From NCBI GenBank assembly GCA_024234435.1, contig JACKOF010000002.1:61695-125694 (forward strand): a stretch of 64,000 nucleotides of DNA, read 5' to 3'. Within the stretch, counting starts at the first letter, position 1. The number at the start of each line of letters is the position of its first letter. The position numbers and the translations under genes were made by a program. This DNA comes from Pseudomonadales bacterium (GTDB taxonomy: Bacteria > Pseudomonadota > Gammaproteobacteria > Pseudomonadales > Porticoccaceae). Shown piece after piece: positions 36,345 to 63,519 of this stretch. A model generated the notes under the pieces. It had not been told where the DNA came from. It saw only the letters and a program-made list of their open reading frames with translations, and did not search any database.

Positions 36345-36574
36345 AAAAAATAAACCGACAAAAAAAAACACCTAAGATACTGATTTAAAATAGTTTTTTT
36401 AGAATTCGGCCTATCTGAAAAAGCGACATCAACGCCACCCAAACATCAATTGTAAATAATGCTGACAGTCACTTGATAACAAACCCCACCTCATCTCTCA
36501 CCCACCCACAACGGGTATGTTTTTGTCCAGACACGGGCTTTGACGCATTGCCGTATTCTCTCCATAATCCGGCA

Positions 36575-38589: not shown

Positions 38590-39354
38590 TCATTCTGAAC
38601 CGGAAGTGATAAGCTGATACTCTGCTTCCATATCGTCATATATCGGTTCATAAAGCTCTCTCATCCCCGGCTCCATGCTCCTCAGCGCCGACTCCAGTGT
38701 GGAAAAATAGGGTGCCCTGATACCGTGATAGTCAATATCACAGCCCACCTTGAGAAAATCAATGCCAGAGCGTTTCAGCAATCGCGGCAGGAAAGGTTCC
38801 ATCATGGCGAACACATTCGTGCAGCCAGACAATTCACTCATGGCAGTTGCGGCCAGAAATGCCGCTACAGAAATAAAGGAAAATGTACGCCGTTCATGCA
38901 GCGAGCAGTCAATGGCGTCCACCTCACCAAACCGGGTAATCGCCTCCCCCGCACGCCGACGGAATGCGCCATCAACAGCCAGTCGTGAAATTTCACACAT
39001 ACTGGATCGTTCAGCTTTCAGCCCCTCAATAAACCCTTTATTCAGGCTGTCTGCACAGTAGGTTTCCAGCGGCAAATTGCTCACCCCCACACCTTTTGTG
39101 CCGGGTACCAGACGCACACACCCGGCAGGTCGCCCTGTACCGATATGGGTAATCAGCCCGTGCAGCGCATGTTCATCAAAAACGTCATATTCCATGTTGT
39201 CTGGAAACTGATCAGCATCTTCATACTGAAACTCCTCGCAGTAAACCCGGTAACGAATACCATACACGTCCTGCTTCTGCTCGGGGCTTATCGCTAACCC
39301 AACCTTGAAATAACGTCGGAAGCTTTCTATTAATGAGTCCGCCTCTTCCCTCAT
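38590..39354 (-). CDS. PEP-CTERM/exosortase-associated acyltransferase (N-acyl amino acid synthase / LuxI-distant GNAT-like family)
   Basis: ATG at 39354 with AGGA upstream. N-terminus FRRYFKVGLAISPEQKQDVYGIRYRVYCEEFQYE and CEISRLAV block, as I recall for this family. Context. Confidence 0.6.
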   Translation of the reverse strand: MREEADSLIESFRRYFKVGLAISPEQKQDVYGIRYRVYCEEFQYEDADQFPDNMEYDVFDEHALHGLITHIGTGRPAGCVRLVPGTKGVGVSNLPLETYCADSLNKGFIEGLKAERSSMCEISRLAVDGAFRRRAGEAITRFGEVDAIDCSLHERRTFSFISVAAFLAATAMSELSGCTNVFAMMEPFLPRLLKRSGIDFLKVGCDIDYHGIRAPYFSTLESALRSMEPGMRELYEPIYDDMEAEYQLITSGSE

Positions 39355-39477
39355 AGTCTTTCCTACCGTCTGCCTGCCCTTTATATTTTTAAAGCTACCT
39401 GAAACCATCAATAATAATGAACCATCGACGGACTATAGCCTGTCATTCCGTTTCTTACGCTTTTCAAAACTCCCGCT

Positions 39478-43092: not shown

Positions 43093-43163
43093 TCAACACA
43101 CCCAAATCTGATCAACGGTAAAAGCCTACAGCCGACAGGTTACGCGGTATTGACAAAAATCGC

Positions 43164-43169
43164 TATAAT
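43164..43169 (+). promoter_or_regulatory. Candidate -10 box (perfect TATAAT) for the ligase operon
   Basis: TATAAT lies 45-55 nt upstream of the ligase start, in the 121-bp divergent intergenic region. No good -35 at correct spacing. Confidence 0.3.
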
Positions 43170-43213: not shown

Positions 43214-44821
43214 GTGGCAATCATGACAGAACTTCTCCACCAGCTTATCAGCAAACAGGCAAAAAAATCGCCTGAAGCCCGAGCCATGTTTTTTAAAGAC
43301 CAGCAATTCAATTATGCAGAGCTGGATCGTCAAATAACCCATGCCGCCGCAGGGTTGCGGTCACTGGGTATTTGCCCCAATGACCGGGTCGCCACTTATC
43401 TGCCCAAACTGCCTGAAAATGTTTTCAGTCTGTTTGGTGCTGCCGCCGCAGGCGGTGTTTTTGTGCCCGTAAATCCATTGCTCAAACCTGCTCAGGTTGC
43501 CTATATTCTTCAGGACTGCAACGTTAAAGTACTGATTACCTCGGCCCAGCGACTCGGCATTTTAGGCGACGTGCTGGACAGCTGCCCGGATCTGACAACC
43601 GTTATTGTTGTGGAAGACGAACGGCCTGCTACAGGGCAACAATCACACTATGAAACGCTTAACTGGACGTCTTTCACAACGACCGGCAGCGAACAGAACC
43701 ATCACACCCGCATCGATGCGGATATGGCTGCCATTCTTTATACCTCTGGCAGTACCGGCAACCCCAAAGGCGTTGTGCTCTCACACAAGAACATGGTCAC
43801 CGGCGCGCACAGCGTCGCCTCCTACCTGAACAACACTGCCGAAGACCGCTTGCTGGCCGCACTGCCCTTCAGCTTTGATTACGGCTTCAGTCAGATGACA
43901 ACGGCTTTTTCGGTAGGCGCTTCAGTCACGCTAATGGATTATCTGTTGCCAAGGGATGTGGTCAGGGCAATCGAAAAATACCAGATCACCGGCCTGGCTG
44001 CCGTACCACCACTCTGGAACCAGCTGGCGCAACTGGAATGGCCCCAAGCTGCTGCTGAAACTTTGCGTTACATCACCAATAGTGGCGGAGCCATGCCACA
44101 AGCAACGACCGCCAGATTGCGGAAAGCGCTACCAAAAACAAACGTGTTCCTGATGTACGGACTGACCGAGGCTTTTCGCTCCACGTTTCTGCCACCGGAA
44201 CAGATCGACATCCGCCCCGACTCCATGGGCAAGGCAATTCCCAATGCCGAAGTCATGGTGGTGCGCCCCGATGGCACGGAGTGTGACCCTCACGAACCAG
44301 GAGAACTGGTACACCGTGGCTCATTGGTAGCAATGGGTTACTGGGGCGACCAGGCGAAAACTGCCGAACGATTTAAGCCTTCCCCTGGCAGGCCAACAGA
44401 TATTCCCATTACTGAAATTGCCGTATGGTCCGGCGATCAGGTAAAGAAAGACGAGGAAGGCTTCCTCTACTTTATCAGTCGCATGGACGAAATGATCAAA
44501 ACCTCCGGCTACAGGGTCAGCCCGTCTGAAGTGGAAGAGGTTATTTATAACCTGAAAGCAATAAAAGAGGTGGCTGCGCTGGGTTTACCCCACCCCACTC
44601 TCGGGCAGGCTATTCTGATCGTTGCCAGCCCAACAGACAGTAACGTTGAGAGTTTGGAAAAAACTATTCTTACACACTGTAAAAAAGAACTACCCGGCTT
44701 TATGGTGCCTCAGGCCGTTATTGTTGAAAGCGAATTACCCCATAATCAAAATGGCAAAATAGACCGAAAAATGCTTTCCATTCAACACCAAAACATTTTT
44801 CAGGATAACGGACAGGAGTAA
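43214..44821 (+). CDS. Acyl-CoA/acyl-carrier ligase (AMP-forming), exosortase-A-associated type
   Basis: AMP-binding motifs ILYTSGSTGNPKGV, YGLTE and SGDQVKKDEEGFLYFISRMDEMIKTSGYRV. The start is GTG 43214 or ATG 43223. Confidence 0.9.
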   Translation: MAIMTELLHQLISKQAKKSPEARAMFFKDQQFNYAELDRQITHAAAGLRSLGICPNDRVATYLPKLPENVFSLFGAAAAGGVFVPVNPLLKPAQVAYILQDCNVKVLITSAQRLGILGDVLDSCPDLTTVIVVEDERPATGQQSHYETLNWTSFTTTGSEQNHHTRIDADMAAILYTSGSTGNPKGVVLSHKNMVTGAHSVASYLNNTAEDRLLAALPFSFDYGFSQMTTAFSVGASVTLMDYLLPRDVVRAIEKYQITGLAAVPPLWNQLAQLEWPQAAAETLRYITNSGGAMPQATTARLRKALPKTNVFLMYGLTEAFRSTFLPPEQIDIRPDSMGKAIPNAEVMVVRPDGTECDPHEPGELVHRGSLVAMGYWGDQAKTAERFKPSPGRPTDIPITEIAVWSGDQVKKDEEGFLYFISRMDEMIKTSGYRVSPSEVEEVIYNLKAIKEVAALGLPHPTLGQAILIVASPTDSNVESLEKTILTHCKKELPGFMVPQAVIVESELPHNQNGKIDRKMLSIQHQNIFQDNGQE

Positions 44822-44825
44822 ACCG

Positions 44826-46061
44826 GTGAGCAAACCTCAACCCCAGCATACGGATATGGCGCAATTTCCCGTCGTCAACAACTGTCTTCAAATAGGCGGC
44901 ATGCCGGTCACGGACCTGGCTGCGAAAGTAGGCCAGACACCCTTCTATGCTTACGACCGTCAATTGATGACAGACCGTGTTGCCGAACTTCGACGCATTT
45001 TGCCCTCAGGAATCAGCCTTCACTACGCCATGAAAGCCAACCCCATGCCCGATGTGGTTAACCATTTTTCAACGATTACAGATGGGCTGGATGTCGCTTC
45101 GGGGGGCGAACTAAAAGTCGCGTTAGCCACAGGCATCAACCCCAAAGAGATCAGCTTCGCCGGCCCGGGAAAATCAAATGAAGAGCTCGAAGCCGCTGCC
45201 AGAGCGGGCATTATCATCAACCTCGAATCGGAAGGTGAAATGGAGCGGCTGTCCATAATTGCCAGCACCCACGACCTCAACCCTGTCGTATCTGTGCGTG
45301 TAAACCCGGACTTTGAGCTCAAAACCTCCGGCATGAAAATGGCGGGCGGCCCGAAACCATTTGGTGTTGATGCCGAGCGCGTACCCGAAATGCTCAAACG
45401 CATCGGTGAACTACCATTTGAGTTTGTCGGTTTTCATATTTTTAGTGGTTCTCAGAACCTCAAACCCGACGCCATTATCGAAGCGCAAACAAAAACGTTT
45501 CAACTGGCAATACAGCTCGCAGAACATGCGCCTTCACCCGTTAGATGGCTAAATATCGGCGGAGGTTTCGGCATCCCTTACTTCCCCGGCGAACAGCGTC
45601 TGGACTTGCAACCCATCGCCGACAACCTTGAAATACTGCTGAAAGAATACCAACCGAAACTGCCCGAAGCAGAAATAGTGATTGAACTGGGCCGTTACCT
45701 CATTGGCGAGGCAGGTGTGTACGTGTGCGAAATTATCGATGTTAAGGAATCCCGTGGAGAAACCTTCGCCATTGCCAATGGTGGCTTACACCACCACCTG
45801 TCACTATCCGGCAATTTTGGCCAAGTCATTCGCAAAAACTACCCGGTCTGCATTGGCAATAATGTGGTCAGCGAAGACACAGCGGCAGTCAATATTGTCG
45901 GGCCACTGTGTACACCACTGGATATTCTGGCCAACAAATATGAACTGCCACTTTTGAAAACCGGAGACCTGGTGGTGGTGTTTCAATCCGGCGCCTATGG
46001 CTTCACCGCCAGCCCCAGAGATTTTCTGAGCCACCCGGAAGCCCGGCAAATACTGGTTTAA
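44826..46061 (+). CDS. PLP-dependent decarboxylase (Orn/DAP/Arg decarboxylase fold type III), exosortase-A-associated type
   Basis: PLP-Lys context HYAMKANP. GGGFGIPY. GPLCTPLD. Begins 4 nt after the ligase stop. Confidence 0.9.
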   Translation: MSKPQPQHTDMAQFPVVNNCLQIGGMPVTDLAAKVGQTPFYAYDRQLMTDRVAELRRILPSGISLHYAMKANPMPDVVNHFSTITDGLDVASGGELKVALATGINPKEISFAGPGKSNEELEAAARAGIIINLESEGEMERLSIIASTHDLNPVVSVRVNPDFELKTSGMKMAGGPKPFGVDAERVPEMLKRIGELPFEFVGFHIFSGSQNLKPDAIIEAQTKTFQLAIQLAEHAPSPVRWLNIGGGFGIPYFPGEQRLDLQPIADNLEILLKEYQPKLPEAEIVIELGRYLIGEAGVYVCEIIDVKESRGETFAIANGGLHHHLSLSGNFGQVIRKNYPVCIGNNVVSEDTAAVNIVGPLCTPLDILANKYELPLLKTGDLVVVFQSGAYGFTASPRDFLSHPEARQILV

Positions 46062-46173
46062 GGGTCATTTTTTGCGACCGACCGGCAGATGATTTTCACC
46101 CTGAAATGTATATACTGGCCTCTGCATAAATAACCCCTGAAAACATTTACTGAATTTTAAATTGGCAAACAGC

Positions 46174-46407
46174 ATGGATACACTGGAGCGCCTCGCGCTT
46201 GTTTTTGAAGACACCTTTACCGACGATTCCTACCAGTTTTCTGAAGAGACCACTCAGGAGGATATTGAGGAGTGGGACAGCCTCAATCAGGTTCGACTAC
46301 TGATGGCTATCGAGCAGGAGTTCGGCATCAAGTTTGCTCTTGATGAGATGGAAAAGCTCACAGGTGTTGCCGCTATTTCCGCTGTCATTTCAGAAAAACT
46401 GAATTGA
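46174..46407 (+). CDS. Acyl carrier protein 1
   Basis: 78 aa, acidic, with phosphopantetheine-site context EEWDSLNQVRLL. ATG at 46174 (the track TTG is at 46162). Confidence 0.8.
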   Translation: MDTLERLALVFEDTFTDDSYQFSEETTQEDIEEWDSLNQVRLLMAIEQEFGIKFALDEMEKLTGVAAISAVISEKLN

Positions 46408-46454
46408 CCGCTCCTCTTGTGATTATTCGCCTCGATAGTTGCTGAGAATCCCGC

Positions 46455-48356
46455 ATGAATGACCTGCCCTGGCTACTGCCTGCTCCTGAAAATTTTAACG
46501 AGCAATGCGCGCAAATGCTCTCTGCTGATAACAGCCTGGACCGGGCCTGCCAACTGGCAGCCACATCGCTTTCATTGAACCAGTGCAACCGACTGATCAA
46601 AGCTCTGGACAAAAGCCATGATCAACAACAGGCCACCAAATCGCCACTGACACACTTCAAGCTCGGTATCGTCAGCAATGCCACGTTTAACCTGTTTGTA
46701 CCGGCGCTACGAGCCTCAGCGCTTCGCCACGGTATTTTACTTGATGTTGTGTTAGCCGATTTTGACCAGATTATGCAAGAAGCATTAAACCCTGAATCCT
46801 TGATCAATAGTGCCGATGTCGATGCCATATTGATCGCACTGGACCATCGGGGCTACCCTTTCGCTACTGACACCCTTGCCAGCACTACACCCGATACCAC
46901 CGCAGCAGATGCCGTCGAACACCTGAACCAACTGCGTTCGGGGTTTGCACGGCACAGTGGTGCTCCCTGCATAGTGCAAACGCTGGCATGCCCACCCTTT
47001 CCGTTACTGGGAGGGCTTGATACGCAACTGGCAGGGCTGTTGCAAAAAGAAATCCGGGATTTCAACAGCCAACTTTGCGATATTGTCGCCGACAGCACGG
47101 ACATCATGCTCGATATAGCTTCACTTGCCAGCCGCGTCGGAACCGGTCAATGGTTTGATGAGCGGCAATGGTTAATGTCTCGCATTGCCATGGCTAACGA
47201 ATTCATCCCCCTATACTGTGATCATGTTGCCCGCACCCTGGCTGCCATGCGCGGCAAAAGCAAAAAATGCCTTATTCTCGATCTGGATAACACACTTTGG
47301 GGTGGCGTGATTGGTGACGATGGCATGGATGGCATACATATCGGCCAGGGTCATCCTGTGGGAGAAGCTCATCAGGCCATACAGCGGTATGCAAAAGAGC
47401 TGAAAAATCACGGCATTATTCTTGCGATTTGCTCAAAAAATGAAGAAGCCATCGCCCTGCAACCATTCCGGGAACATCCCGATATGGTGTTGCAAGAAGA
47501 GGACATCGCTGTATTCGTTGCCAACTGGAATGACAAAGCCAGCAATATTCAGCATATTGCCCGTACACTCAATATTGGCACCGATGCACTGGTGTTTCTG
47601 GATGATAACCCAATGGAACGCGATATTGTCCGGACGGTATTACCCGAAGTTTCAGTTCCCGAATTACCCGATGATGCAGCGTTGATTCCACGCACACTGG
47701 CTGCGGCAGGCTACTTTGATTTAATCAGCTTTACCACTGACGATGCCCAGCGAAGCGAGCAGTACCGCGCCAATGCTATACGTCAGAAGGCTATGGAGTC
47801 TTCCGGGAATATCGACGACTACCTGGCCAGCCTGGATATGGCCATTGAGTTCAAAGCCTTTGATGCCAGCGGACGCAAACGCATCACACAGCTGATCAAC
47901 AAAACCAATCAGTTTAACCTGACAACCCGACGCTATACCGAAGCAGAAGTGGAACAGTTTGAAGTAAACCCGCAATACATCACCCGGCAGGTTCGACTTT
48001 CCGACAAATTTGGTGACAACGGCATGATCAGTGTGCTGATCGCCAAGAAAGAGCAGGACTGTCTGATTGTTGACACTTGGCTCATGAGTTGCCGGGTAAT
48101 TAAACGCCGCGTTGAAGATGCACTTTGTGACGAACTGGTCGCCGCAGCAAAAGCTGAGGGCATCACAACCATCCGTGGTGTCTACCTTCCTACGTCCAAA
48201 AACCCCCTGGTAAAAGAACACTACCAAAATCTGGGTTTTTCTCTCATTGACAGCACTGATGGCACCGACACATGGGAACTGAACATCAACGATTATCAAG
48301 CCAAAACACCCCCCATGTCCGTCACAAGACAATCACCTGAAATGGTCGGGGCCTGA
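46455..48356 (+). CDS. FkbH-like protein (HAD-IIIC phosphatase domain plus FkbH/GNAT-like C-terminal domain)
   Basis: HAD motif I LILDLDNTLWGG, motif II ICSKN, motif IV FLDDNP. Also INKTNQFNLTTRRY and WLMSCRVIKRRVE blocks. Confidence 0.85.
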   Translation: MNDLPWLLPAPENFNEQCAQMLSADNSLDRACQLAATSLSLNQCNRLIKALDKSHDQQQATKSPLTHFKLGIVSNATFNLFVPALRASALRHGILLDVVLADFDQIMQEALNPESLINSADVDAILIALDHRGYPFATDTLASTTPDTTAADAVEHLNQLRSGFARHSGAPCIVQTLACPPFPLLGGLDTQLAGLLQKEIRDFNSQLCDIVADSTDIMLDIASLASRVGTGQWFDERQWLMSRIAMANEFIPLYCDHVARTLAAMRGKSKKCLILDLDNTLWGGVIGDDGMDGIHIGQGHPVGEAHQAIQRYAKELKNHGIILAICSKNEEAIALQPFREHPDMVLQEEDIAVFVANWNDKASNIQHIARTLNIGTDALVFLDDNPMERDIVRTVLPEVSVPELPDDAALIPRTLAAAGYFDLISFTTDDAQRSEQYRANAIRQKAMESSGNIDDYLASLDMAIEFKAFDASGRKRITQLINKTNQFNLTTRRYTEAEVEQFEVNPQYITRQVRLSDKFGDNGMISVLIAKKEQDCLIVDTWLMSCRVIKRRVEDALCDELVAAAKAEGITTIRGVYLPTSKNPLVKEHYQNLGFSLIDSTDGTDTWELNINDYQAKTPPMSVTRQSPEMVGA

Positions 48357-48357
48357 C

Positions 48358-49812
48358 GTGCCAGAAAAAAAGCGGATTGGTGCGTTCTCGATATCACAGG
48401 CGTTTACCCATGCATTTGCAGAACTGTCTGGCGACAGTAACCCTCTGCATGTGGACCCAATTGCCGCCCGTCGTTATCAATTTGGCACCACCGTTGTGCA
48501 TGGTATCTGTGCTGCATTAAAAGCGCTGGATGTTTTTTTCGGTGCCCAGCCTGCCAGTGGCAACACCCTAGCACTGGCATCGATCAAAATTCAGTTCAAC
48601 AAGCCGCTGCATCACGATGATGATGTGGAAGTGTTTCACAGCATCAATGAAAAATCGCATCGGCTGGAACTGAGCAAAAACGGCAAACGCGCGCAGATCA
48701 TCAGCTTTGAACTGCAATCCATCCATGACAGCGGCAAAGCGACGGTCAAAAGCCTTTCGGAAAACAGCTCTCCGATTTCAATCAACAACTACACTTTTGT
48801 GGAGGCCGCCACTGCCGAAGGCAAGATTCCCTTTAACTGGAATCAACGCCTCGCCGAAGAGCTGTTTCCCAATGCAACAAATGTTTTGCCTGCAAGCCAG
48901 ATCGCTACGCTGCTGGCAACCACCGTTATTGTGGGTATGAAGTGTCCGGGGCTGAACTCTGTTTACGGCGGCTTGAATCTATCATTCAATGCAACGTTAA
49001 TTGCCCAGCCCGGCCCACTGAGCTACCGGGTCAGCGACAGCGACGAGCGTTTTAACCGATTGTTGATTGATACCGAAAACGACATAGCCTCCGGTCAGAT
49101 TGAAACCTTCTACCGCGCACCACCGGTCGTTCAACCTTCTTTCAAGCAAATAAAACCCTTGCTGACCGGCAACGAATTTGCTGCCCAACGTGCACTGATT
49201 ATTGGCGGCTCTCGGGGCCTGGGAGAGATCACTGCAAAAATACTGGCGGCAGGCGGCGCTAAAACTATTATCACCTACGCCAGCGGCCAACAGGATGCCG
49301 AACGTGTCGCCAATGATATTAACGCAGGCAGCGGCTACTGTCAGACCGCCCAATACAATATTTTGAAGCCTGACGTCCACATCGCCCACAGCTTCACCGA
49401 AGAGCCCATCAGCCACATCTATTACCTGGCATCACCGGTTATCAGCAAAAGCGATCACCTGCTGTGGGACGACAGCCTGTTTAACCACTATTACCGCTAT
49501 TACGTTACTGGTCTCAAAGATCTGTTATCCCCTTTTGTAGAAAGTGCCGACTACAAAAAATCGGCGCTGAATATTTTTATCCCTTCCACCGTTTTTCTCT
49601 CGGAACCCATTAAGGGGTTTGGAGAGTATTGTGCTGCTAAAGCCGCCGCCGAAACTTTTGCACAACAGATTCCGCTTGCTGCTCCCAGGTGGTCCGCGTT
49701 CAGACCAAGATTGCCGAGGCTACAAACGGATCAGACCAGTGGCGCCATGTCTGCGGACCCGATGGAAGCCACCACCGTATTACTCAACACTTTATTGTCG
49801 TTGTCATTATGA
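48358..49812 (+). CDS. Bifunctional MaoC-like (hotdog) dehydratase / short-chain dehydrogenase-reductase
   Basis: N-terminus FAELSGDSNPLHVDP...TVVHG (MaoC). C-terminus ALIIGGSRGLGEITA Rossmann loop (SDR). GTG start 1 nt after the FkbH stop. Confidence 0.8.
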   Translation: MPEKKRIGAFSISQAFTHAFAELSGDSNPLHVDPIAARRYQFGTTVVHGICAALKALDVFFGAQPASGNTLALASIKIQFNKPLHHDDDVEVFHSINEKSHRLELSKNGKRAQIISFELQSIHDSGKATVKSLSENSSPISINNYTFVEAATAEGKIPFNWNQRLAEELFPNATNVLPASQIATLLATTVIVGMKCPGLNSVYGGLNLSFNATLIAQPGPLSYRVSDSDERFNRLLIDTENDIASGQIETFYRAPPVVQPSFKQIKPLLTGNEFAAQRALIIGGSRGLGEITAKILAAGGAKTIITYASGQQDAERVANDINAGSGYCQTAQYNILKPDVHIAHSFTEEPISHIYYLASPVISKSDHLLWDDSLFNHYYRYYVTGLKDLLSPFVESADYKKSALNIFIPSTVFLSEPIKGFGEYCAAKAAAETFAQQIPLAAPRWSAFRPRLPRLQTDQTSGAMSADPMEATTVLLNTLLSLSL

Positions 49813-50681
49813 ATCAGCCTGCAGAAAAAACTGTCAGCCCGAACCTTCTTCCCATTGGCGAAGAAAATATCCCCGATGTCGCAGTTTTTTTAAACAGACA
49901 TATGAACAGCACATTCTCTGTCGAAGCGTGGGCGAACGGATTGCGCGCCTGCTGGCTGGAAGACGCACCCAATCATGGCTTTATGCTGCAAGCAGAAGGT
50001 CAGATTGTCGGCGTACTGTGCGCCATCTATTCCCTGCAAAATATTGAAGGCCGCACAGAAAAATTTTGCAATCCGCACACTTGGTGTGTGCTGGAACCGT
50101 ATCGCAGTAAAAGCGTACCCCTGGTGCTCTCGGTTATCCGGCAGGAGGGCTACCACTTCACCATGTTCTCACCCAACAAGGAAGGCGAGCAGATATTCAG
50201 CTACCTGGGGTTCAAACCCCTCGATCGCTCGAAGCTGGTATTGCCACACACCCCCAGCCCAAAGCGTTTCAAAAAAGATGAAATTTTCACCCACGACCTG
50301 ACTCAGTATCTGCCACCAACACTCGCCAAATGCGCCGAAGATCACCAGCCTTATCCCTGGGTGCACAGTTTTGCGTTCCGCTCGGGTGACGAATATTGCC
50401 TGGTTTTTTACAAACCGGGCAAATACAAAAAAATGCCCTGCGCCAACATCACTTACATCAGCAATAAATCTCTGTTCAGCCGTTGCTGGGGCGCTGTAAA
50501 AAATCACCTGTTGTTCAAGAAAGGGCTTTTGGTTACCCGTATTGACGCGCGGTTTCTTGAAAACCCACCCAGGCTATCGTTTAAAACACTTGATGGGCCA
50601 GCCCGTTTTTACCTTAGCAACACCGCCGGGCCTGCAGACATTGAATACATTTATAGTGAACTTACGGTAATGAATCTTTAA
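49809..50681 (+). CDS. Putative acyltransferase-like protein (possibly GNAT fold), function unknown
   Basis: ATGA overlap with the upstream gene. Weak GNAT-like region (GFMLQAEGQIVGVLCAIYS). The call is low-confidence. Confidence 0.4.
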   Translation: MNQPAEKTVSPNLLPIGEENIPDVAVFLNRHMNSTFSVEAWANGLRACWLEDAPNHGFMLQAEGQIVGVLCAIYSLQNIEGRTEKFCNPHTWCVLEPYRSKSVPLVLSVIRQEGYHFTMFSPNKEGEQIFSYLGFKPLDRSKLVLPHTPSPKRFKKDEIFTHDLTQYLPPTLAKCAEDHQPYPWVHSFAFRSGDEYCLVFYKPGKYKKMPCANITYISNKSLFSRCWGAVKNHLLFKKGLLVTRIDARFLENPPRLSFKTLDGPARFYLSNTAGPADIEYIYSELTVMNL

Positions 50682-50722
50682 AATGCACGGCAAACAAGTC
50701 GTACCTATAACGGAATCAAACT

Positions 50723-50971
50723 ATGAACTTGCTGGAAGATATAACTCAGATTGTTGCTGAAGTTTTAATGCTTGACGACCAGGCAGACGGTTTTGATGAA
50801 AACACCGCATTGCTCGGCGCAATCCCCGAATTCGACTCCGTGGCTGTTGTCTCACTGGTCACCGCACTGGAAGACGAGTTTGGCTGCACGTTTGACGACG
50901 ACGAACTCAATGCCGACGTGTTCGCCACTATCGGTAGCCTAACCAAAACTGTCGAACAAAAACTCGCCTGA
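50723..50971 (+). CDS. Acyl carrier protein 2
   Basis: 82 aa, acidic, with Ser-site context IPEFDSVAVVSLV. Confidence 0.8.
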   Translation: MNLLEDITQIVAEVLMLDDQADGFDENTALLGAIPEFDSVAVVSLVTALEDEFGCTFDDDELNADVFATIGSLTKTVEQKLA

Positions 50972-51810
50972 TGAACCAACCGTTCTTCCTCAAACCCGGC
51001 TTTATTGAAGGTGAAAAGGGCCCTCTCTTTGCCATACACCATGAACCGGTTATAAAGGCAGACCGCAATGAGTGCGTGGTCGTTCTTTCCGCATTTGCCG
51101 AAGAAATGAACCGTTGCCGCTATATGCAAAACATGCTTGCACAGGCTCTTAACAAACAAGGTTATGGCCTGATTTGCGTAGACCCCTATGGCACCGGCGA
51201 CAGCGCTGGTGAATTTGCCGACGCTGACTGGAACGGCTGGGTCTCTGACAGTATCACCGCAATCCACTATGCCGCAGAACTGGGCTACAACAAAATTTCG
51301 CTACTCGGCATCCGCCTGGGCGCGTTACTGGCGCTGGCGGCAATGCCTTCGGTAAATAATGTCTCCCACCTGCTTCTGTGGCAGCCGGTATACAACGGCA
51401 AGGCGACTCTGACCCAGTTTCTGCGGCTCAAAATTGCCGCAGCCATGGCACGAGGTGAAGACGGCATTACTACCGCTCAACTGGAAGACGAAATCAATCA
51501 GGGTAGCAGCATTCAGATTGCCGGCTATGATGTCTCCCCGGGCCTTTTCAAGGGTATTCAGCAAGCACATATCAACCACCATTTCGATGCAATTCCAGCG
51601 TCTGTCTCTTGGTTTACCGTATTGCCCAGTGCTGACAAAAAAGCGCCACGAGCAGACCTGCAGACCATAGAAAAATGGCGCAGCAAAGGTGTCCAGATCA
51701 ACCACCAGAATATTGTTGGCCCCGCTTTTTGGCAGGCACATGAACGCACCCTGGCGCCCGATCTTGTTCCTGCTACACTCGCCGCAGTAATCGGAGGTGA
51801 AGCGCCATGA
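50971..51810 (+). CDS. Alpha/beta-hydrolase-fold protein, exosortase-A-associated hydrolase type, with Arg at the nucleophile position
   Basis: TGATG overlap with ACP2. DPYGTGDSAG block. The nucleophile elbow reads LLGIRLGALL instead of GxSxG. Confidence 0.7.
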   Translation: MNQPFFLKPGFIEGEKGPLFAIHHEPVIKADRNECVVVLSAFAEEMNRCRYMQNMLAQALNKQGYGLICVDPYGTGDSAGEFADADWNGWVSDSITAIHYAAELGYNKISLLGIRLGALLALAAMPSVNNVSHLLLWQPVYNGKATLTQFLRLKIAAAMARGEDGITTAQLEDEINQGSSIQIAGYDVSPGLFKGIQQAHINHHFDAIPASVSWFTVLPSADKKAPRADLQTIEKWRSKGVQINHQNIVGPAFWQAHERTLAPDLVPATLAAVIGGEAP

Positions 51811-52664
51811 ACGAAAAGGCGGTTGTCTTCAGCTGCGGTAACGACCCGCTGATAGGCATCATTCACCAACCGGATGAACCCGTAAACACAGGGGTTATTA
51901 TTATCGTTGCCGGTGGTCCGCAATACCGGGTTGGTGCCCACCGGCAATTCGTCACCCTTGGCCGCCAGCTGGCCAGCAAGGGGATTCCCACCCTTCGGTT
52001 TGACCATCGCGGAACCGGCGACAGCAGCGGCGATTACCGCGGCTTTGTCGACATGGACAAGGATATTCAGGCCGCCATTGACACACTATTAAAAGAATAT
52101 CCGCATCTGGAAAAAATTGCCTTATGGGGCGAGTGTGAATCCGCTTCTGCCGCCGCTTTCTATGCCTATAATGACGACAGGGTCAGCGGCCTTTTTCTGG
52201 TCAACCCCTGGATACGAACCGAAGCAGGTCAGGCGAAGACCTACCTCAAACACTACTACCGCAAGCGCTTGCGGGATCCAAAATTCTGGAAAAAATTACG
52301 CTCCGGTGAGTTCTCGTTTTTGAAATCTGCAGAAGCTTATTTGAAGCTGCACTCTGAAGCCAGAAAACAAAAACAGTCCGCGGAAAAACCACAGGAAAAC
52401 CTGAAAGAGTTACCTCTTCCCGAGCGCCTGACCAAAAGCCTGCACCTTTTTGCAGGCAACACCTATATTCTCACCAGCGGCAACGACTATATTGCCCAGG
52501 AATTCAAAGACTTTATGGCCACCTCTGATTTATGGAAAAAATCAGGCATCAATGAAAAATCCACCTTTCACGATATGGCCGATGCTGACCACACCTTCTC
52601 GCGCACAGAGTGGCGGGTAGAGCTCTTTCAGCACACAGAAACCTGGCTATTGGCTAGCCAATAA
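51807..52664 (+). CDS. Alpha/beta-hydrolase-fold protein, exosortase-A-associated hydrolase type, with Cys at the nucleophile position
   Basis: ATGA overlap. DHRGTGDSSG block. Nucleophile elbow LWGECESASAA. His context DADHTF. Confidence 0.7.
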   Translation: MNEKAVVFSCGNDPLIGIIHQPDEPVNTGVIIIVAGGPQYRVGAHRQFVTLGRQLASKGIPTLRFDHRGTGDSSGDYRGFVDMDKDIQAAIDTLLKEYPHLEKIALWGECESASAAAFYAYNDDRVSGLFLVNPWIRTEAGQAKTYLKHYYRKRLRDPKFWKKLRSGEFSFLKSAEAYLKLHSEARKQKQSAEKPQENLKELPLPERLTKSLHLFAGNTYILTSGNDYIAQEFKDFMATSDLWKKSGINEKSTFHDMADADHTFSRTEWRVELFQHTETWLLASQ

Positions 52665-52688
52665 GAACGCACCCACGGAACTGCGACT

Positions 52689-53411
52689 ATGAAAAAAAAC
52701 GTCATCATCCTCACCCACGGCTGGACCGGCAGCTCCGTTTTTTCTGCACTGATTGGCAAAGCCGGATACTGGAAAGGTGACAACACCCACAAGAAACCTG
52801 ACTACGACACACATGAAAATAAAGAGCTTATTCAGCTGAATGAACGGCTGATGTCTGAGTTAGGCTTCACGGGTGACCACGAGCACGAATTCGATCTGGC
52901 AACCATTCAAAACCTGGCCAAACGCGCCGAAAATATCGACCTGTCTCCCTATCAGGAGTTTGTCGACAAGTGCGAGCAAAACAAACCCTGGATCTGGAAA
53001 GACCCGCGCCTGACATGGACTATTCGCGTATGGGCCAAACTTTTGGATTTAAAAAATATTGCTTTCGTGATTCTCACCAGAGATGATGAACAGGCTTGGA
53101 TATCCTGCAACCTGAGACGGCATATTCAAAGCAAACGTTTTACCAAAGCCTACAATCACGGCATCACCTCTTCACTTCAGAAATTTCTCGATGAAAACCA
53201 GTGTGGTTTCGTGAAATACGAGTTTGAAGATTTGTTGCTCACGCCAGATAAGACCATCGAAGAGCTAAACGGTTTTCTTGATATTAACCTGACTATGGAA
53301 GACCTGACATCTGTCTATCGATATCCTCTTTACAAAAAGTCTCGGAATTGGAAAGACAAGCTGGAGGCAACAGCTATTTATCTGAAAAACTATAAAGAGC
53401 GCTATCGATAA
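52689..53411 (+). CDS. Sulfotransferase-like protein
   Basis: N-terminal PAPS 5'-phosphate-binding-like loop ILTHGWTGSS and 3'-phosphate-binding-like block VILTRDDEQAWIS. Confidence 0.5.
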   Translation: MKKNVIILTHGWTGSSVFSALIGKAGYWKGDNTHKKPDYDTHENKELIQLNERLMSELGFTGDHEHEFDLATIQNLAKRAENIDLSPYQEFVDKCEQNKPWIWKDPRLTWTIRVWAKLLDLKNIAFVILTRDDEQAWISCNLRRHIQSKRFTKAYNHGITSSLQKFLDENQCGFVKYEFEDLLLTPDKTIEELNGFLDINLTMEDLTSVYRYPLYKKSRNWKDKLEATAIYLKNYKERYR

Positions 53412-54382: not shown

Positions 54383-57154
54383 CTAATTAAGCGTCCACCT
54401 CTCCCAAAGTGGCTGGGGCAACGAATCAATATAATCATTCATTTTTTCTACAACGCTCGCATCAGGATTCTCTTTTTTATCGCAGGAATTCGAACCCAAA
54501 GGCACAAACCTGTTGGTGTTGTCGTAACGATGCTTGCCGTTTGTCGACATTCCACGAGGAGAGTGATTGCGAAACATGAAAGGTTTGCTAACACCGTTAT
54601 CCAGGCAATTTCCGCTGACATAAATACGTTGCCGCTCTTGCCACCCTTCTGGAATTTCAGGTGCCTGTCGTCTGAAACCAAAACTGGAGTCTCTAACCGA
54701 GGGGTAGGTGCCATCCGACATTAAGGCAAATAATTTACCCGCCTTGGAACGCTCATCAGAAGTTTGAATAATCTGGCTATTGACGACATAAGAATTCAAA
54801 GGTTTGGGGTTTTCCCAAAAGCTCGCATTCCAGCCCGGCGACTCCTGATAGAACTTGCCTTCAAACCACTGCGGGCCATGATAAGGTTGTTGCGGACTGG
54901 GACCAGAGTACATTCTCGGCATGTCACAGCCCGCGCCCAACGCATCCCTGAACTGCCATTGAATCGACTGGGGGTTGCTGTTGCCCCACGCCACATGATT
55001 GACAACCGTAACGCCATCCACCACTGCACGGTTACAGGACGCCATGGAAATGGGCGCTAACCCGCCTTTACCAAAATGCTTTTTATCTGGATCAAAATAT
55101 TCCGGATCGTCTATTACTTCGCCGTGAACACCCTGATTACTGTGTATGCTGTTGCGCACAACCACATTCTGGCCGGTATATTTCGCCGCATGTTTGCCCG
55201 GCAACCACGGCCCCATGATGATGCTGTCTTCTACCCAGTTAAGATAGGTGCGATCCATATACACTGTGTGGCTGTTGCGAGCCCGGGCCATCACACCTTT
55301 CATATAGATTCGATTATCCGCTTTGTGGGTGGCATCCTGCTTTTCCACTCCAGCCATTAACAGGCGCCCCCGACATTTGGCGGTAATTCCCATCATTGTC
55401 AGGGTAGTAGACTCTGCATAAGCAGGCAGTTGCACACACAATCCGGAGCTGTGAAAGCGCAGATTCAATAGCGTTAATGTTGCATCATCTGCTTTCGTGC
55501 CCCAGTTAAAGTAGGTTGCGGGACCCGGCTTGCCATCCTTAATCAGAACCGGGCGACGCGTTGTGGAATCGTAAGCGCCGATCACCACGAGGCTTTCCTG
55601 ATGTCCACCCACATAAGGCTGAAAGGTATTGGGCACAACCAAATCCTCAGCAATCACACCAACAACTTTTTTATAGACGGCAAGCTTTTTAAAGTCCTGT
55701 GCCGTCACTACGTCACGACAACTATGCCCTGGAAATTGCTGAAGATTGAGATTGCTACAATTTTTGACTGGCTGATTATTTGTTGAGAAGTTAGAGGTAT
55801 CAACCGCCTCCATATAACAGTTGTTTTCACCATCGCCAATCGGGTCGTTGGGTAAGGCAGCATAGCCTGTCACCCTTTTAAACCCTGCCCCACCATTCCG
55901 TTCTTTAGGACACCATACATGCCCAAAACGAATCGGCCAATCAGGATGGTGGGTTACTCCTGAAGCAGTATCCTGCTTTTTCACTGAAGTTATTTGTGGA
56001 GTCGGTGTCACAAGAGACGTGTTTTTTTCAGGCAAAACTATTGCTGTTTCAGGTTTTGCTGCCGCAATATTACCGGGCATTTTCAAAAAATGGACATTGT
56101 TTTTAATATCATTAACAAAAACAAACCCATTGTATTTTTCGCTATACCGAAACCGGCCATATATGCCATGTTTATTAGCTGCTGGTGCCAGGCCTTTGGT
56201 TTCAATGACGCTTACTTGCCAGGTTTCCGGATGGATAAAATACAGCAGGTTGCCGCCTGACCAGGCAACATACCGATCAATGGCTTTGACAAAGGCAAGG
56301 CCCGGCGAGTTTGCTGCCGCAATTTTGCTGTCAGCGAGAGACGAAATGACGGTTCTTTCATAATTTTCCAGACTGTAAACCAACGCTCTTTTCTGCCCCA
56401 GTAACAGAAAATTACGTCGCCCGGCATCAATAGCGGCTGTCAGGTTTGATCGGCCCAGATCACCAAACCGGGTATTGAGGGCAGCCCAGCGATCTGTATC
56501 GGGGTTATAGGTGTAAAACGGTCCCCTGCGCGACTCGAAAACATTGCCTGTTTTTTCATCGTAGGCCATGGAATAGCCCAGCTTCCAGGTTCCCTTGCCA
56601 CCTTGAAATTCCCAGCTGCCGTCTTCCGGATTGCCCACCCACCAGCGGTTGTCTGCGGAACCTGCCCCGTTACAGAGCGAACCGCCATGCACCAGAAATT
56701 CATCACTTGACGCAATATAAGCAAGCCCATTGTAGGTATGTCGAGAGGCGGGATTGCCATCTGGCGTTTTACCGGACTGGTCATCGTAACCGACAAGATC
56801 CGAAGGCCCACTCAACAGATGCCAGCCGAGCTCATCCAGGTCAAACGCCAGCCACTCATTGCCGCAATAATCGGCATGCCCACCGCCAAAAATCATCAAC
56901 CGGTTACGCTTGCTGTCAAAATCACCACCACTCCAGGCACCAACAATAGCTCCGGGACCCACAATGCCATGTACCGGTTGCTTAAACGATTCCTCTGGCA
57001 ACACCTCCACCAGGCGGCTGTTGGGAATTTGTAACCATTGGCCGGGCGTTGCATCGACAAGGAGATGACCGGCATTAGCATTGAACGAAGGTAAAACTGC
57101 CACGCATGCAGCAATAAAATACAAACTTAACTGTGACGAAATTCTACCCAGCAT
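54383..57154 (-). CDS. Large secreted protein: N-terminal Kelch-type beta-propeller-like domain plus C-terminal parallel beta-helix-like domain (probable polysaccharide-active enzyme)
   Basis: ATG at 57154 with GAGGGAG upstream gives signal peptide MLGRISSQLSLYFIAACVAVLPSFNANA. Repeated Kelch-like strands (RHTYNGLAYIASSDEFLVHGG and others). The track start 57301 overlaps wzx. Confidence 0.55.
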   Translation of the reverse strand: MLGRISSQLSLYFIAACVAVLPSFNANAGHLLVDATPGQWLQIPNSRLVEVLPEESFKQPVHGIVGPGAIVGAWSGGDFDSKRNRLMIFGGGHADYCGNEWLAFDLDELGWHLLSGPSDLVGYDDQSGKTPDGNPASRHTYNGLAYIASSDEFLVHGGSLCNGAGSADNRWWVGNPEDGSWEFQGGKGTWKLGYSMAYDEKTGNVFESRRGPFYTYNPDTDRWAALNTRFGDLGRSNLTAAIDAGRRNFLLLGQKRALVYSLENYERTVISSLADSKIAAANSPGLAFVKAIDRYVAWSGGNLLYFIHPETWQVSVIETKGLAPAANKHGIYGRFRYSEKYNGFVFVNDIKNNVHFLKMPGNIAAAKPETAIVLPEKNTSLVTPTPQITSVKKQDTASGVTHHPDWPIRFGHVWCPKERNGGAGFKRVTGYAALPNDPIGDGENNCYMEAVDTSNFSTNNQPVKNCSNLNLQQFPGHSCRDVVTAQDFKKLAVYKKVVGVIAEDLVVPNTFQPYVGGHQESLVVIGAYDSTTRRPVLIKDGKPGPATYFNWGTKADDATLTLLNLRFHSSGLCVQLPAYAESTTLTMMGITAKCRGRLLMAGVEKQDATHKADNRIYMKGVMARARNSHTVYMDRTYLNWVEDSIIMGPWLPGKHAAKYTGQNVVVRNSIHSNQGVHGEVIDDPEYFDPDKKHFGKGGLAPISMASCNRAVVDGVTVVNHVAWGNSNPQSIQWQFRDALGAGCDMPRMYSGPSPQQPYHGPQWFEGKFYQESPGWNASFWENPKPLNSYVVNSQIIQTSDERSKAGKLFALMSDGTYPSVRDSSFGFRRQAPEIPEGWQERQRIYVSGNCLDNGVSKPFMFRNHSPRGMSTNGKHRYDNTNRFVPLGSNSCDKKENPDASVVEKMNDYIDSLPQPLWERWTLN

Positions 57155-57179
57155 TACAACTCCCTCTGAGAATAGACCA

Positions 57180-61959: not shown

Positions 61960-63519
61960 TCAAAATTGGAAGTAAAGAAACTCGGAAACCTGGCTAAGTG
62001 TTAACACACCAAACAGAAACATCAGCGCAGTCACGACAGCCCACTTGCCCGAAAGGGTCCACTCACAGACACCTTTGGATTTTCTGAAGCCTTTAAAAGC
62101 CGCATCGTTTTCATATAAAACAGGTTCCGCTCTGTGAAAAATCTGTGCCAGATTAGGGGCAAAAAAGGCCAACAGCGCCGCCGGAACAATCCACGCAAAA
62201 TTCTCAACAAACCGTGAACCGCTGGTATAACTGACCCCTACGCCCGCCTGTTGCAACAGCTCGCCAACGTCGCCGAGCCTGGCAACGATCCCGGCCGGAA
62301 TTTGCACACCATTGGCACCGGACATTGCCAGCAAAATCGAATTGGCCTGCTCCAGCGTTGGAGCGCGAAAGAATACCCACGACACAACTACTGCCAGAAA
62401 AGTCAGCAGCCAGCAACTGGCGTTATAGACAGACGACTCACGCCAGTCGAGCCGCGCTACTGTCAGCAACTTGCTCCAGGCATGGTTAATCATCAGGTAC
62501 GTGCCATGCAGACAACCCCAGACAACAAAGGTCCAACCAGCACCGTGCCACAACCCGCCAAGCAGCATAGTCAAAAACAGATTGATATAGCGGCGTGATT
62601 TGCCTCGTCTATTGCCACCCAGGGAGATATAGAGATAATCACGCAAAAACCGCGACAGGGTAATATGCCAGCGCCGCCAAAAATCGACAATGCTGTTGGC
62701 TTTGTAGGGTGAGAAAAAATTAAGCGGCAGGGTTATGCCAAACATTCGCGCGCAACCAATAGCCATATCCGAATAGCCGGAGAAGTCAAAATAGAGCTGA
62801 AAGGTATACGCCAGTGTGCTGCCCCAGGCAGTAAAAAAATCCAGTTGCCCTGCTGCCGGACTGTCATATACCGGCCCCACATAAGCCGATAGACTGTCAG
62901 CCAGAACCGTTTTTTTGAACAGGCCAATACTGAAAATACTGATCCCTACGGCAATATTTTTTGTCCACGACGGCAACGCATCCCGACGCATGAACTGTGG
63001 CAGCATTTCGCTGTGATGAACAATTGGCCCGGCAATCAACTGGGGGAAAAAACAGACAAACAAAGAGTAGTGCAACAAATTATACTCTCGCGCCTTACCC
63101 TCCCATACATCCACCAGATATGAAATCTGTTGAAAGGTAAAAAATGAAATTGCCAGCGGCAAAAATATTTTTTCCAGTTGCAGACTGGTACTGAATACAG
63201 CGTTGATATTATCTACAAAAAAATTGGCATATTTGAAATAACCCAGCAATGCCAGATTAATCCCAACACCGCAAATCATTACCAGCTTTGAAGGCTGCCC
63301 CGAAAAACGCGAGATCAGTTTGCCAACGTAATAATTGAAAAAAATGGAAAAAAGAATAAGAAATAAATAGGCCGGATTCCAGTAACCATAGAAAAACAGA
63401 GAGGCCGACACCAGCACGGCAAAGCCGATCTCTGTTTTCCGCCTGCGCAGGCATAACACGTACAGCAGCAACGTGCAGGGAAGAAAAGCAAAAATAAACT
63501 CGAAAGAGTTAAAGAGCAT
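61960..63519 (-). CDS. MBOAT-family membrane O-acyltransferase (AlgI/DltB-like)
   Basis: Starts MLFNSFEFIFAFLP. Conserved blocks FWRRWHITLSRFLRDYLYISLGGNRRG and GGLWHGAGWTFVVWGCLHG. Confidence 0.9.
   Translation of the reverse strand: MLFNSFEFIFAFLPCTLLLYVLCLRRRKTEIGFAVLVSASLFFYGYWNPAYLFLILFSIFFNYYVGKLISRFSGQPSKLVMICGVGINLALLGYFKYANFFVDNINAVFSTSLQLEKIFLPLAISFFTFQQISYLVDVWEGKAREYNLLHYSLFVCFFPQLIAGPIVHHSEMLPQFMRRDALPSWTKNIAVGISIFSIGLFKKTVLADSLSAYVGPVYDSPAAGQLDFFTAWGSTLAYTFQLYFDFSGYSDMAIGCARMFGITLPLNFFSPYKANSIVDFWRRWHITLSRFLRDYLYISLGGNRRGKSRRYINLFLTMLLGGLWHGAGWTFVVWGCLHGTYLMINHAWSKLLTVARLDWRESSVYNASCWLLTFLAVVVSWVFFRAPTLEQANSILLAMSGANGVQIPAGIVARLGDVGELLQQAGVGVSYTSGSRFVENFAWIVPAALLAFFAPNLAQIFHRAEPVLYENDAAFKGFRKSKGVCEWTLSGKWAVVTALMFLFGVLTLSQVSEFLYFQF

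Follow-up and report, generated by a model that had tools for sequence, protein, structure and literature searches.

The families TIGR03098-03101 of the exosortase A system were curated by co-occurrence with the exosortase XrtA and are held as "hypothetical equivalogs" with no assigned reaction (NCBIfam/TIGRFAMs). They comprise an AMP-forming ligase, a decarboxylase and two hydrolases. We describe a locus in which all four are encoded together with two acyl carrier proteins (ACP1 and ACP2), an FkbH-like protein and three further proteins. The locus lies in a stretch of 64,000 nucleotides, hereafter the window, from a marine Pseudomonadales bacterium of the Porticoccaceae (assembly GCA_024234435.1, contig JACKOF010000002.1, positions 61,695 to 125,694). 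Its ten genes, at 43214-53411 of the window, consist of the conserved exosortase-A-associated set, split by an accessory cassette of four genes, and a final sulfotransferase-like gene. They might together build a small acyl decoration of exopolysaccharide (EPS) on two carriers.

For the first carrier arm, the closest described systems come from natural product pathways. In the vicenistatin pathway, the ACP VinL receives 3-methylaspartate from VinN, and the thioester is then decarboxylated by the pyridoxal phosphate (PLP) enzyme VinO (PMC11284099). BtrK is an L-glutamyl-[BtrI acyl-carrier protein] decarboxylase, which turns Glu-S-BtrI into gamma-aminobutyryl (GABA)-S-BtrI and is placed in a clade of fold-III enzymes related to diaminopimelate (DAP) decarboxylase (PMC7857480).

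For the second arm, the nearest counterparts are loading modules of polyketide synthases (PKS) that contain an FkbH or OzmB-type protein. Bryostatin BryA has a loading module of dehydratase (DH), ketoreductase (KR), FkbH and ACP domains, giving a lactate starter. Outside polyketides, cj1302 of Campylobacter jejuni has been linked to glyceroyl-modified flagellar sugars. An FkbH loading module is listed in a published BiGMeC table as yielding D-lactate-ACP (PMC7901079), and cj1302 is described as an FkbH-domain gene in a flagellar glycosylation locus (PMC7099621). A literature search on FkbH in polysaccharide loci gave tangential papers only.

Gene order and the boundary between the two modules

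Ten open reading frames (ORFs) on the plus strand were confirmed. Their coordinates, their order and the overlaps given for them in the preliminary description proved exact on re-reading of the sequence. Both members of the hydrolase pair are present as described there, with their order corrected to hydrolase 2 followed by hydrolase 1. The genes are as follows.

43214..44821, plus strand: ligase (lig), AMP-forming adenylating enzyme; TIGR03098, 795 bits against a cut-off of 592
44826..46061, plus strand: decarboxylase (dec), fold-III PLP enzyme; TIGR03099, 601 bits against a cut-off of 478
46174..46407, plus strand (ORF opens at TTG 46162): ACP1, carrier of the FkbH cassette; PP-binding, phosphopantetheine Ser in WDSL
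46455..48356, plus strand: FkbH-like protein with N-terminal domain, HAD-IIIC phosphatase and C-terminal Cys domain
48358..49812, plus strand: fusion of MaoC dehydratase and short-chain dehydrogenase/reductase (SDR); Pfam MaoC_dehydratas at residues 12-100, adh_short at residues 278-438
49809..50681, plus strand: P6, tandem-GNAT-fold protein of an unnamed family, from an AlphaFold2 model and Foldseek
50723..50971, plus strand: ACP2, canonical carrier of the exosortase-A-associated set; PP-binding, phosphopantetheine Ser in FDSV
50971..51810, plus strand: hydrolase 2 (hyd2), alpha/beta-hydrolase fold; TIGR03101, 252 bits against a cut-off of 203
51807..52664, plus strand: hydrolase 1 (hyd1), alpha/beta-hydrolase fold; TIGR03100, 312 bits against a cut-off of 168
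52689..53411, plus strand: P10, sulfotransferase-like; Sulfotransfer_3 below threshold, E 6.6e-4

The boundary between the modules was drawn from a survey of decarboxylase relatives. The GTDB species set contains 296 of them, and 80 genome loci (decarboxylases of 61-76% identity, 10-kb flanks) were searched with all ten window proteins. The ligase and decarboxylase genes were conserved as a unit in 72 of the 80 loci, and hyd1 next to hyd2, like lig next to dec, was seen in the window and in most of the loci. None of the 80 had FkbH, MaoC/SDR, P6, ACP1 or P10 within 10 kb of the decarboxylase. Nine loci from Porticoccus and Porticoccaceae carried the contiguous order lig-dec-ACP-hyd2-hyd1; their ACP was 73-77% identical to ACP2 of the window, while ACP1 matched nothing there. 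Throughout the surveyed lig-dec loci the ACP2-type carrier was found immediately 5' of hyd2. Carriers resembling ACP1 always adjoined FkbH and were absent from lig-dec loci without FkbH.

It follows from the pattern of ACP identities that ACP2 is the canonical carrier of the set and ACP1 the carrier of the cassette. As delimited by these comparisons, the accessory cassette is ACP1-FkbH-MaoC/SDR-P6 (46174-50681), placed after the decarboxylase and ahead of the canonical ACP. The preliminary description had the two carriers swapped, with a cassette from FkbH to ACP2 inserted between ACP1 and the hydrolases. The assignment of ACP1 as canonical carrier and ACP2 as cassette member is ruled out by the ACP identities in the 80 loci.

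The preliminary description had placed the ligase, the decarboxylase and both hydrolases in the exosortase-A-system families, and all four scored above the curated NCBIfam cut-offs. The resemblance to the described set extends to the surroundings, with PrsT, a PEP-CTERM protein and the TIGR03694 acyltransferase in the locus, and to gene order, as set and ACP form a single operon in the nearest genera. The difference is that the set of the window is split by the four-gene cassette between decarboxylase and ACP, which none of the 80 loci showed. In the nearest relative found, locus L174 (decarboxylase 85% identical), lig-dec is accompanied by a convergent ACP and hyd2-hyd1 fusion, without the cassette. 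By these comparisons the ten-gene arrangement is rare and lineage-specific, being otherwise seen only in locus L090, with the same gene order, and in the window's own lineage. The assignment of the region to a PEP-CTERM/EPS locus was borne out by four genes of the window: those for PrsT, which exceeds the TIGR02917 cut-off of 312 with 659 bits, for a PEP-CTERM protein of the THxN type, for TIGR03694 and for a flippase of the Wzx type. The window also contains an Asn-synthase-like gene.

Full-length homologues of the FkbH-like protein with at least 50% identity were common in Proteobacteria, Myxococcota and Acidobacteriota. The order ACP-FkbH-MaoC/SDR-P6-ACP-hyd2-hyd1-P10 was found in Halioglobus (L087) and Bowmanella (L171), with lig-dec not nearby, and Nitrosomonas (L088) had the same order without P10. 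In L103, L172 and L173, lig and dec stood beside the cassette and ACP2-hyd was convergent. Cassette and conserved set thus occur together in at least four gene orders (window/L090, L087/L088/L171, L103, L172/L173), which argues for a functional linkage. Hyd1 was present in seven of eight P6 loci as against 0 of 32 without P6 (Fisher p = 4e-7, the loci not being phylogenetically independent).

A second survey covered 33 metagenome FkbH loci with at least 3 kb on both sides. A carrier protein was located within 1.5 kb of FkbH in 25 of them, and a DltB-like membrane-bound O-acyltransferase (MBOAT) within 6 kb in 21, on the same strand in 20. MaoC was present in five of the 33 loci, and P6 with hyd1 in only one. 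FkbH-ACP-MBOAT is the predominant setting of the FkbH subfamily to which the window protein belongs. In the EPS locus L089 of Rhodoferax, an MBOAT, its partner gene, ACP, MaoC, SDR and FkbH were found without P6 or hyd, the MaoC and SDR being two separate genes beside FkbH.

The intergenic spacings of the ten genes are, in order, 4, 100, 47, 1, -4, 41, -1, -4 and 24 nt, the second becoming 112 nt with the ACP1 start at ATG 46174 chosen by the gene callers. The verified junctions include ATGA at 49809 and 51807, TGATG at 50971 and a GTG one base past the stop at 48358. A scan of the operon gave no terminator-like sites or promoters in the intergenic gaps and no Rfam elements; a hairpin at 46186-46200 lies within the ACP1 coding sequence and was not counted as a terminator. 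Judged from gene spacing and the lack of internal terminators, the ten genes probably form a single transcription unit. The GC content was 0.50-0.51 over 44-52 kb, and a composition break that would suggest recent horizontal insertion of the cassette was not seen there. Over 36455-58356 the window matched a Logan contig of run SRR12358676 at 100% identity and the NCBI metagenome-assembled genome (MAG) GCA_041395805.1 at 99.76%, the latter with 31 gap openings. Since the ten genes recur at 100% identity on independent public assemblies, the arrangement is not an assembly artefact.

One promoter-like element was noted in front of the operon.

43164..43169, plus strand: candidate -10 element (perfect TATAAT), about 45 nt 5' of gene 1, read from the sequence

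It is the sole obvious element of this kind in the 121-nt gap between a divergent protease gene and the ligase. The promoter scan did not call it because a -35 element is absent 16-18 nt upstream. A perfect TTGACA does occur together with this TATAAT at 43150-43169 (ttgacaaaaatcgctataat), with a spacer of only 8 nt; such spacing is wrong for sigma-70, so that only TATAAT is plausible as a putative -10 element.

Proteins of the two arms and the hydrolase pair

The gene callers placed the ligase start at ATG 43223. The best solved relatives of the ligase were adenylation domains of nonribosomal peptide synthetases (NRPS; LgrA, 268 bits), followed by the stand-alone adenylation enzyme 3wvn/3wv4 (198 bits), which we take to be VinN, and the beta-aminoacyl-ACP synthetase 7dq5. 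The Asp of the A4 motif (FSFD), which binds the amino group, and the Lys of A10 (GKxDR) are both retained, and the DltA model was absent among the best 25 of 107 families matched. From this kinship the ligase is predicted, with fair confidence, to load an amino acid onto ACP2, the substrate probably being an acidic or dicarboxylic one.

Among solved structures the decarboxylase was matched best by BtrK (251 bits, 37.6% identity over 380 residues), as against at most 179 bits for DAP decarboxylases and at most 62 bits for ornithine decarboxylases. BtrK is thus a nearer relative of it than the DAP, ornithine or arginine decarboxylases are, as would be expected of a BtrK/VinO-type enzyme. The partner genes of such an enzyme are also in place, lig-dec-ACP being contiguous in Porticoccus and lig and dec only 4 nt apart in the window. 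The amino acid tethered to ACP2 is the substrate that we would rather expect for it. Both carriers are PP-binding proteins by Pfam with the Ser in a DS[LV] motif, and ACP2 matched the DltC model weakly (E 3e-4).

With these homologies, ligase, ACP2 and decarboxylase follow the established three-enzyme logic of VinN, VinL and VinO. The likeness to the Vin and Btr (BtrJ/BtrI/BtrK) systems lies in adenylation onto a stand-alone ACP followed by a fold-III PLP decarboxylase (PMC11284099, PMC7857480). The window ligase, like VinN, is an enzyme of the ANL/A-domain type, whereas BtrJ is an ATP-grasp enzyme. The settings differ as well, since the window genes belong to an EPS locus instead of a PKS or aminoglycoside cluster, and the window has no PKS and no homologue of BtrH/BtrG or VinK/VinM. 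Offloading would instead use a Cys alpha/beta-hydrolase pair.

In the second arm, the FkbH-like protein scored 305 bits against a cut-off of 147 for TIGR01686, 63 against 36 for TIGR01681 and 36 against 27 for FkbH_N, and a match to PDB 3slr spans its residues 65-427. The preliminary description had made its interpretation depend on the catalytic HAD and Cys residues. They are intact: D276, D278 and T280 (DxDxT), S327, K328, D383, D384 and C546 (LMSCRV) were invariant in 14 homologues of 49-73% identity. C546 is presumably the acyl-accepting Cys. We consider it fairly probable from family and motifs that this protein loads a glyceryl unit from 1,3-bisphosphoglycerate onto ACP1.

The MaoC/SDR fusion has kept SGDxNPxHxD, the Rossmann motif GGSRGxG, the catalytic Ser (PS[ST]) and YxxxK in 15 fusion homologues. 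By analogy, MaoC and SDR beside FkbH fit a dehydratase/ketoreductase logic, by which glyceryl-ACP is predicted to become lactyl-ACP. The FkbH/OzmB-type and DH-KR-FkbH-ACP modules thus share with the window an intact FkbH, a dedicated ACP adjoining it, and a dehydratase with a ketoreductase-type reductase. In contrast to these modules, the window proteins stand alone, the dehydratase is of the MaoC type and not a PKS DH, a ketosynthase and the methoxymalonyl-ACP enzymes FkbG, FkbI and FkbK are absent, and the surrounding genes are polysaccharide genes. The likeness to cj1302 is one of description only, in that an FkbH-domain gene is found in a glycan-modification locus outside a polyketide cluster; two Nitrosomonas-type cassettes likewise adjoin flagellar genes.

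P6 gave no match in Pfam, in NCBIfam or in a sequence-profile search of the PDB. An AlphaFold model built on 43 homologues reached a pLDDT of 92.5, and Foldseek aligned it with double-GNAT enzymes, namely 2ozg, 3n7z, Eis and N-myristoyltransferases (E about 1e-8 to 1e-9, TM up to 0.60, probability 1.0). The earlier label "acyltransferase-like" for this gene therefore stands at the level of fold, as a tandem GNAT, but has no counterpart in a sequence match to a described GNAT family. Representative clusters of the family number 2036 at E <= 1e-3, and 564 remain when the threshold is E <= 1e-30. Among four longer homologues inspected for fusion partners, the extra region held no Pfam domain.

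Neither hydrolase has the Ser triad of serine hydrolases (S33/Hydrolase_4), as judged from 34 homologues of each. All 34 homologues of hyd1 have WG[EL]C[ED]xA at the nucleophile elbow, the Cys aligning where solved S33 esterases carry the Ser of GLSMGG, and the three residues of the putative triad Cys110-Asp227-His262 are invariant. In hyd2 the motif is G[IL]R[LA]G in all 34 homologues; Arg115 aligns with the nucleophile Ser of the same esterases, and no His is invariant. Hyd1 is accordingly predicted to be a thioester-accepting acyltransferase or a thioesterase for ACP2, and hyd2 is probably its non-catalytic partner. In three loci the two are a single fused protein of 536-587 amino acids with two Hydrolase_4 regions, encoded next to ACP (L172, 10878-12641; L173, 10895-12505; L174, 11249-12991). 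The Arg of hyd2 and these natural fusions suggest a catalytic subunit paired with a pseudo-enzyme, the fusions offering Rosetta-stone-type support for a hyd2-hyd1 complex.

Sulfotransfer_3 matched all three members of the P10 family, that is the window protein and two homologues, with a best E of 1.8e-7. The homologues are encoded directly 3' of hyd1 in Halioglobus (L087) and Bowmanella (L171).

A possible two-carrier pathway and its alternatives

The preliminary description proposed a two-carrier pathway that joins an amino-acid-derived and a glycerate-derived unit, and the general idea was supported here. In the form that we favour, a small acyl decoration would be built in two arms and offloaded to EPS; taken as a whole, this chain falls a little short of being probable. 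Its first three steps are individually the better founded. The ligase would adenylate an amino acid, which is thioesterified to ACP2; homology and the gene order in Porticoccus make this reasonably likely. The BtrK-like decarboxylase would then strip the alpha-carboxylate on the carrier, leaving an omega-aminoacyl-S-ACP2 of the beta-alanyl or GABA type, for which our confidence is about the same. Comparably well placed is the formation of glyceryl-S-ACP1 from 1,3-bisphosphoglycerate by FkbH, given the family function, the intact motifs and the dedicated ACP. By analogy with the PKS modules, MaoC would dehydrate the glyceryl unit to pyruvoyl-S-ACP1 in its enol form, which the SDR would reduce to lactyl-S-ACP1.

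The later steps are more tentative. P6 may take the C3 acyl group off ACP1 and attach it to the amine of the unit carried by ACP2, as its fold and its co-occurrence with ACP2-hyd hint; chemically, the Vin and Btr pathways offer a parallel in that they N-cap amines of this kind. Possibly the Cys of hyd1, together with the degenerate hyd2, offloads the product to an acceptor via a thioester intermediate. The acceptor might be EPS or a lipid-linked repeat unit, perhaps reached via an MBOAT pair in the manner of Dlt D-alanylation; we hold this as doubtfully as the two steps before it. Modification of the unit or of the sugar by P10 is speculative.

The MBOAT pair lies 7.4 kb downstream of the operon.

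61960..63519, minus strand: DltB/AlgI-type MBOAT; Pfam MBOAT, 128 bits
60826..61950, minus strand: MBOAT partner of 374 amino acids with N-terminal membrane anchor and possible SGNH/DltD-like domain

It is the likely partner of the operon, a candidate for moving the carrier-bound unit to a periplasmic polymer. Orthologues of the pair were found near lig-dec or ACP-hyd in L012, L030, L016, L075 and L175, and the partner always adjoined the MBOAT (window, L087, L012 and L030). In the partner, G72-x-S74-R75, D128 and H345 are invariant; a DltD/SGNH nature is possible from the GNSR motif, the invariant His and the adjacency to MBOAT. A profile search of the PDB with the partner gave a chance-level match only, a single-sequence AlphaFold model was unusable (pLDDT 33), and a Pfam scan of six homologues returned one sub-threshold DUF1574 match only. 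In L175 of the Porticoccaceae (15321-17830), an MBOAT converges on lig-dec-ACP-hyd2-hyd1 and is followed by a NonGDSL protein (PF25182). As the window partner has no match to PF25182 at E <= 1, there are at least two types of partner.

DltABCD resembles the locus in having an adenylating ligase, a small carrier, an MBOAT (that of the window being best matched to DltB), a membrane-anchored partner and an envelope polymer as target. The locus may operate in a Dlt-like way but is not a Dlt system, since its proteins fall outside DltB, DltD and DltA by family scores. It also adds a decarboxylase, an FkbH arm, a GNAT and a hydrolase pair, and the host is Gram-negative.

Several observations weigh against the two-carrier pathway with EPS as acceptor. 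XrtA was not found among the window ORFs in scans of the 64 kb, and a literature search on the function of the exosortase/PEP-CTERM-associated set gave nothing relevant. The sole NCBIfam match of the window MBOAT, DltB TIGR04091, scores 179 bits, which is below its cut-off of 375, and the MBOAT could be a simple EPS O-acetylase. Its partner is not demonstrably DltD-like, the Pfam matches being DUF1574 at a sub-threshold E of 6e-5 and DltD at E 0.19. Of the full-length decarboxylase loci, 51 in number, only six had an MBOAT gene within 10 kb of lig-dec, and only two of the eight P6-type cassettes had one at that distance. Locus L170 has ACP-FkbH-MaoC/SDR-P6 only, with neither hyd nor lig-dec within 10 kb. 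As the cassette is missing from the nine Porticoccus loci and from L174, and occurs alone in L170, the P6 coupling is not obligatory. The two Nitrosomonas-type cassettes, L088 and L170, are beside flagellar and not EPS genes.

The same distribution could be read as two independent decorations encoded side by side. The conserved set would make a product of its own, ACP1-FkbH-MaoC/SDR would feed an MBOAT that O-acylates EPS, and P6 would be unrelated. We consider this unlikely, although likelier than the other alternatives. Both modules do occur alone (Porticoccus and L174 without the cassette, L170 without the set), the triad FkbH-ACP-MBOAT is widespread and sufficient in itself, whether MaoC/SDR is present or not (21 of the 33 loci), and in Halioglobus the MBOAT orthologue (63% identity), with its partner, is divergent from ACP1-FkbH and adjoins it. 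This is opposed by the P6-type cassettes, which are accompanied by ACP2-hyd in seven of eight loci and in several gene orders, while FkbH loci without P6 never have hyd1. Moreover, MBOAT is scarcer near P6-type cassettes (two of eight) than at P6-less loci (21 of 32; p = 0.047), which fits P6 as consumer of the acyl-ACP1.

That the two-carrier pathway instead makes a small molecule is, in our judgement, improbable. On such a reading a diffusible N-acyl amino compound, a signal or surfactant unattached to EPS or PEP-CTERM proteins, would be released by hyd1 as a thioesterase. The nearest characterised relatives (BtrK, the adenylation enzymes of macrolactams, FkbH) do belong to natural-product pathways, the alpha/beta-hydrolase pair could be a thioesterase, the cassettes of L088 and L170 lie outside EPS loci, and a homologue of the FeeM-type N-acyl amino acid synthases (TIGR03694) is encoded nearby. 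However, there is no ketosynthase, condensation or other chain-building domain, and the genes are consistently found among those for flippase, glycosyltransferase, Wzy and Asn-synthase. The curated families are themselves defined by XrtA co-occurrence, and the MBOAT neighbours indicate an extracytoplasmic acceptor.

An origin in primary metabolism, with a fatty-acid CoA ligase (FadD) and a lysine-pathway DAP decarboxylase (LysA) clustered by chance with hydrolases, which the preliminary description had itself named as fatal to its idea, is effectively refuted: the weaker matches to long-chain-fatty-acid CoA ligase (335 bits) and LysA (242 bits), and the JGI label "diaminopimelate decarboxylase" on homologues, stand against scores far under the respective cut-offs of 476 and 298 and far over those of the exosortase-A-associated families, a lig-dec unit kept in 72 of 80 loci, and BtrK outscoring every DAP decarboxylase.

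A further idea extends the two-carrier scheme towards protein anchoring, and we regard it as very improbable. The conserved set would install free-amine omega-aminoacyl groups on an XrtA-dependent EPS or envelope acceptor, and these amines would be the nucleophile, long looked for, that resolves the acyl-enzyme of exosortase A and so anchors PEP-CTERM proteins covalently to the polymer, in parallel to the pentaglycine amine of lipid II in sortase A anchoring. If this were true, the role of the FkbH/MaoC-SDR/P6 cassette in this lineage would be to cap the handle, or to vary it, with a lactyl or glyceryl group, and the heterodimer of Cys-hydrolase and pseudo-hydrolase would be a new kind of ACP-to-glycan transferase.

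Several elements of this analysis appear to be new: the corrected module structure, the tie of decarboxylase and ligase to BtrK and to NRPS adenylation domains, the Cys/Arg active-site pattern and the fusions of the hydrolase pair, the tandem-GNAT P6, and the widespread FkbH-ACP-MBOAT association. The kinship to BtrK and A-domains, the nucleophile pattern of the hydrolases, the lactyl logic of MaoC and SDR, and the MBOAT pair go beyond what the preliminary description held. With the two-carrier pathway, exosortase-A-associated families known only by co-occurrence gain a proposed chemistry, namely carrier-tethered decarboxylation and offloading by a Cys-enzyme with a pseudo-enzyme. The survey also points to a large FkbH subfamily outside polyketide synthesis, usually with a carrier and a DltB-like MBOAT, and this context to a widespread, undescribed glyceryl or lactyl ester route to bacterial surface polymers. 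If the pathway is true, it bears on the chemistry of floc and biofilm matrix in environmental Proteobacteria, and could bear on the attachment of PEP-CTERM proteins. Because all parts are in one operon, the ten-gene arrangement is convenient for reconstitution.

Neighbouring genes

Upstream of the operon, an Acg-family FMN oxidoreductase-like protein is encoded at 36473-37645 on the plus strand. It is followed on the minus strand by a ThiF-like adenylyltransferase (37676-38554; PRK08223, 439 bits) and the TIGR03694 exosortase-associated acyltransferase, which is FeeM/autoinducer-synthase-like (38590-39411). The ThiF and FeeM-like pair, then LMWPc and a trypsin-like protease, are also found 5' of lig-dec in L175 and partly in L174. 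These neighbours may form a further module of the locus that is conserved but uncharacterised.

Downstream, an ORF of 972 amino acids at 54383-57301 (minus strand), with only weak Kelch-repeat matches, runs about 120 nt into the 3' end of the ORF for the Wzx-type flippase (57180-58658, minus strand). Given this overlap, translation probably begins further inside the ORF. The NCBI MAG copy (L001) has the same ORF broken into many small gene calls, and its 31 indels over 21.9 kb look like long-read assembly error. The Asn-synthase-like amidotransferase at 58779-60632 (plus strand) scored 319 bits for TIGR03108, well under the cut-off of 817, and is thus a paralogue and not a canonical member. 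Asn-synthase-like genes are also located 3' of hyd1 in L175 and L087. In L088 (1-9436) and L170 (1-6211), the cassette starts directly 3' of flgA, at the edge of a flagellar rod/hook cluster.

Two further gene groups were recorded 5' of the EPS genes. At 3412-8970 on the minus strand there are two response regulators resembling the NosR-family cyclic di-GMP (c-di-GMP) phosphodiesterase regulator, below cut-off, together with a sensor histidine kinase and a MauG/MbnH-like di-haem enzyme. An MSHA-type pilus cluster occupies 10339-20000 and includes PilM-like and GspF/PilC-like proteins, an MshL secretin (TIGR02519, 257 bits against 250) and a PilB/GspE-type ATPase with the MshE-type c-di-GMP-binding N-terminal motif (71 bits against 38).

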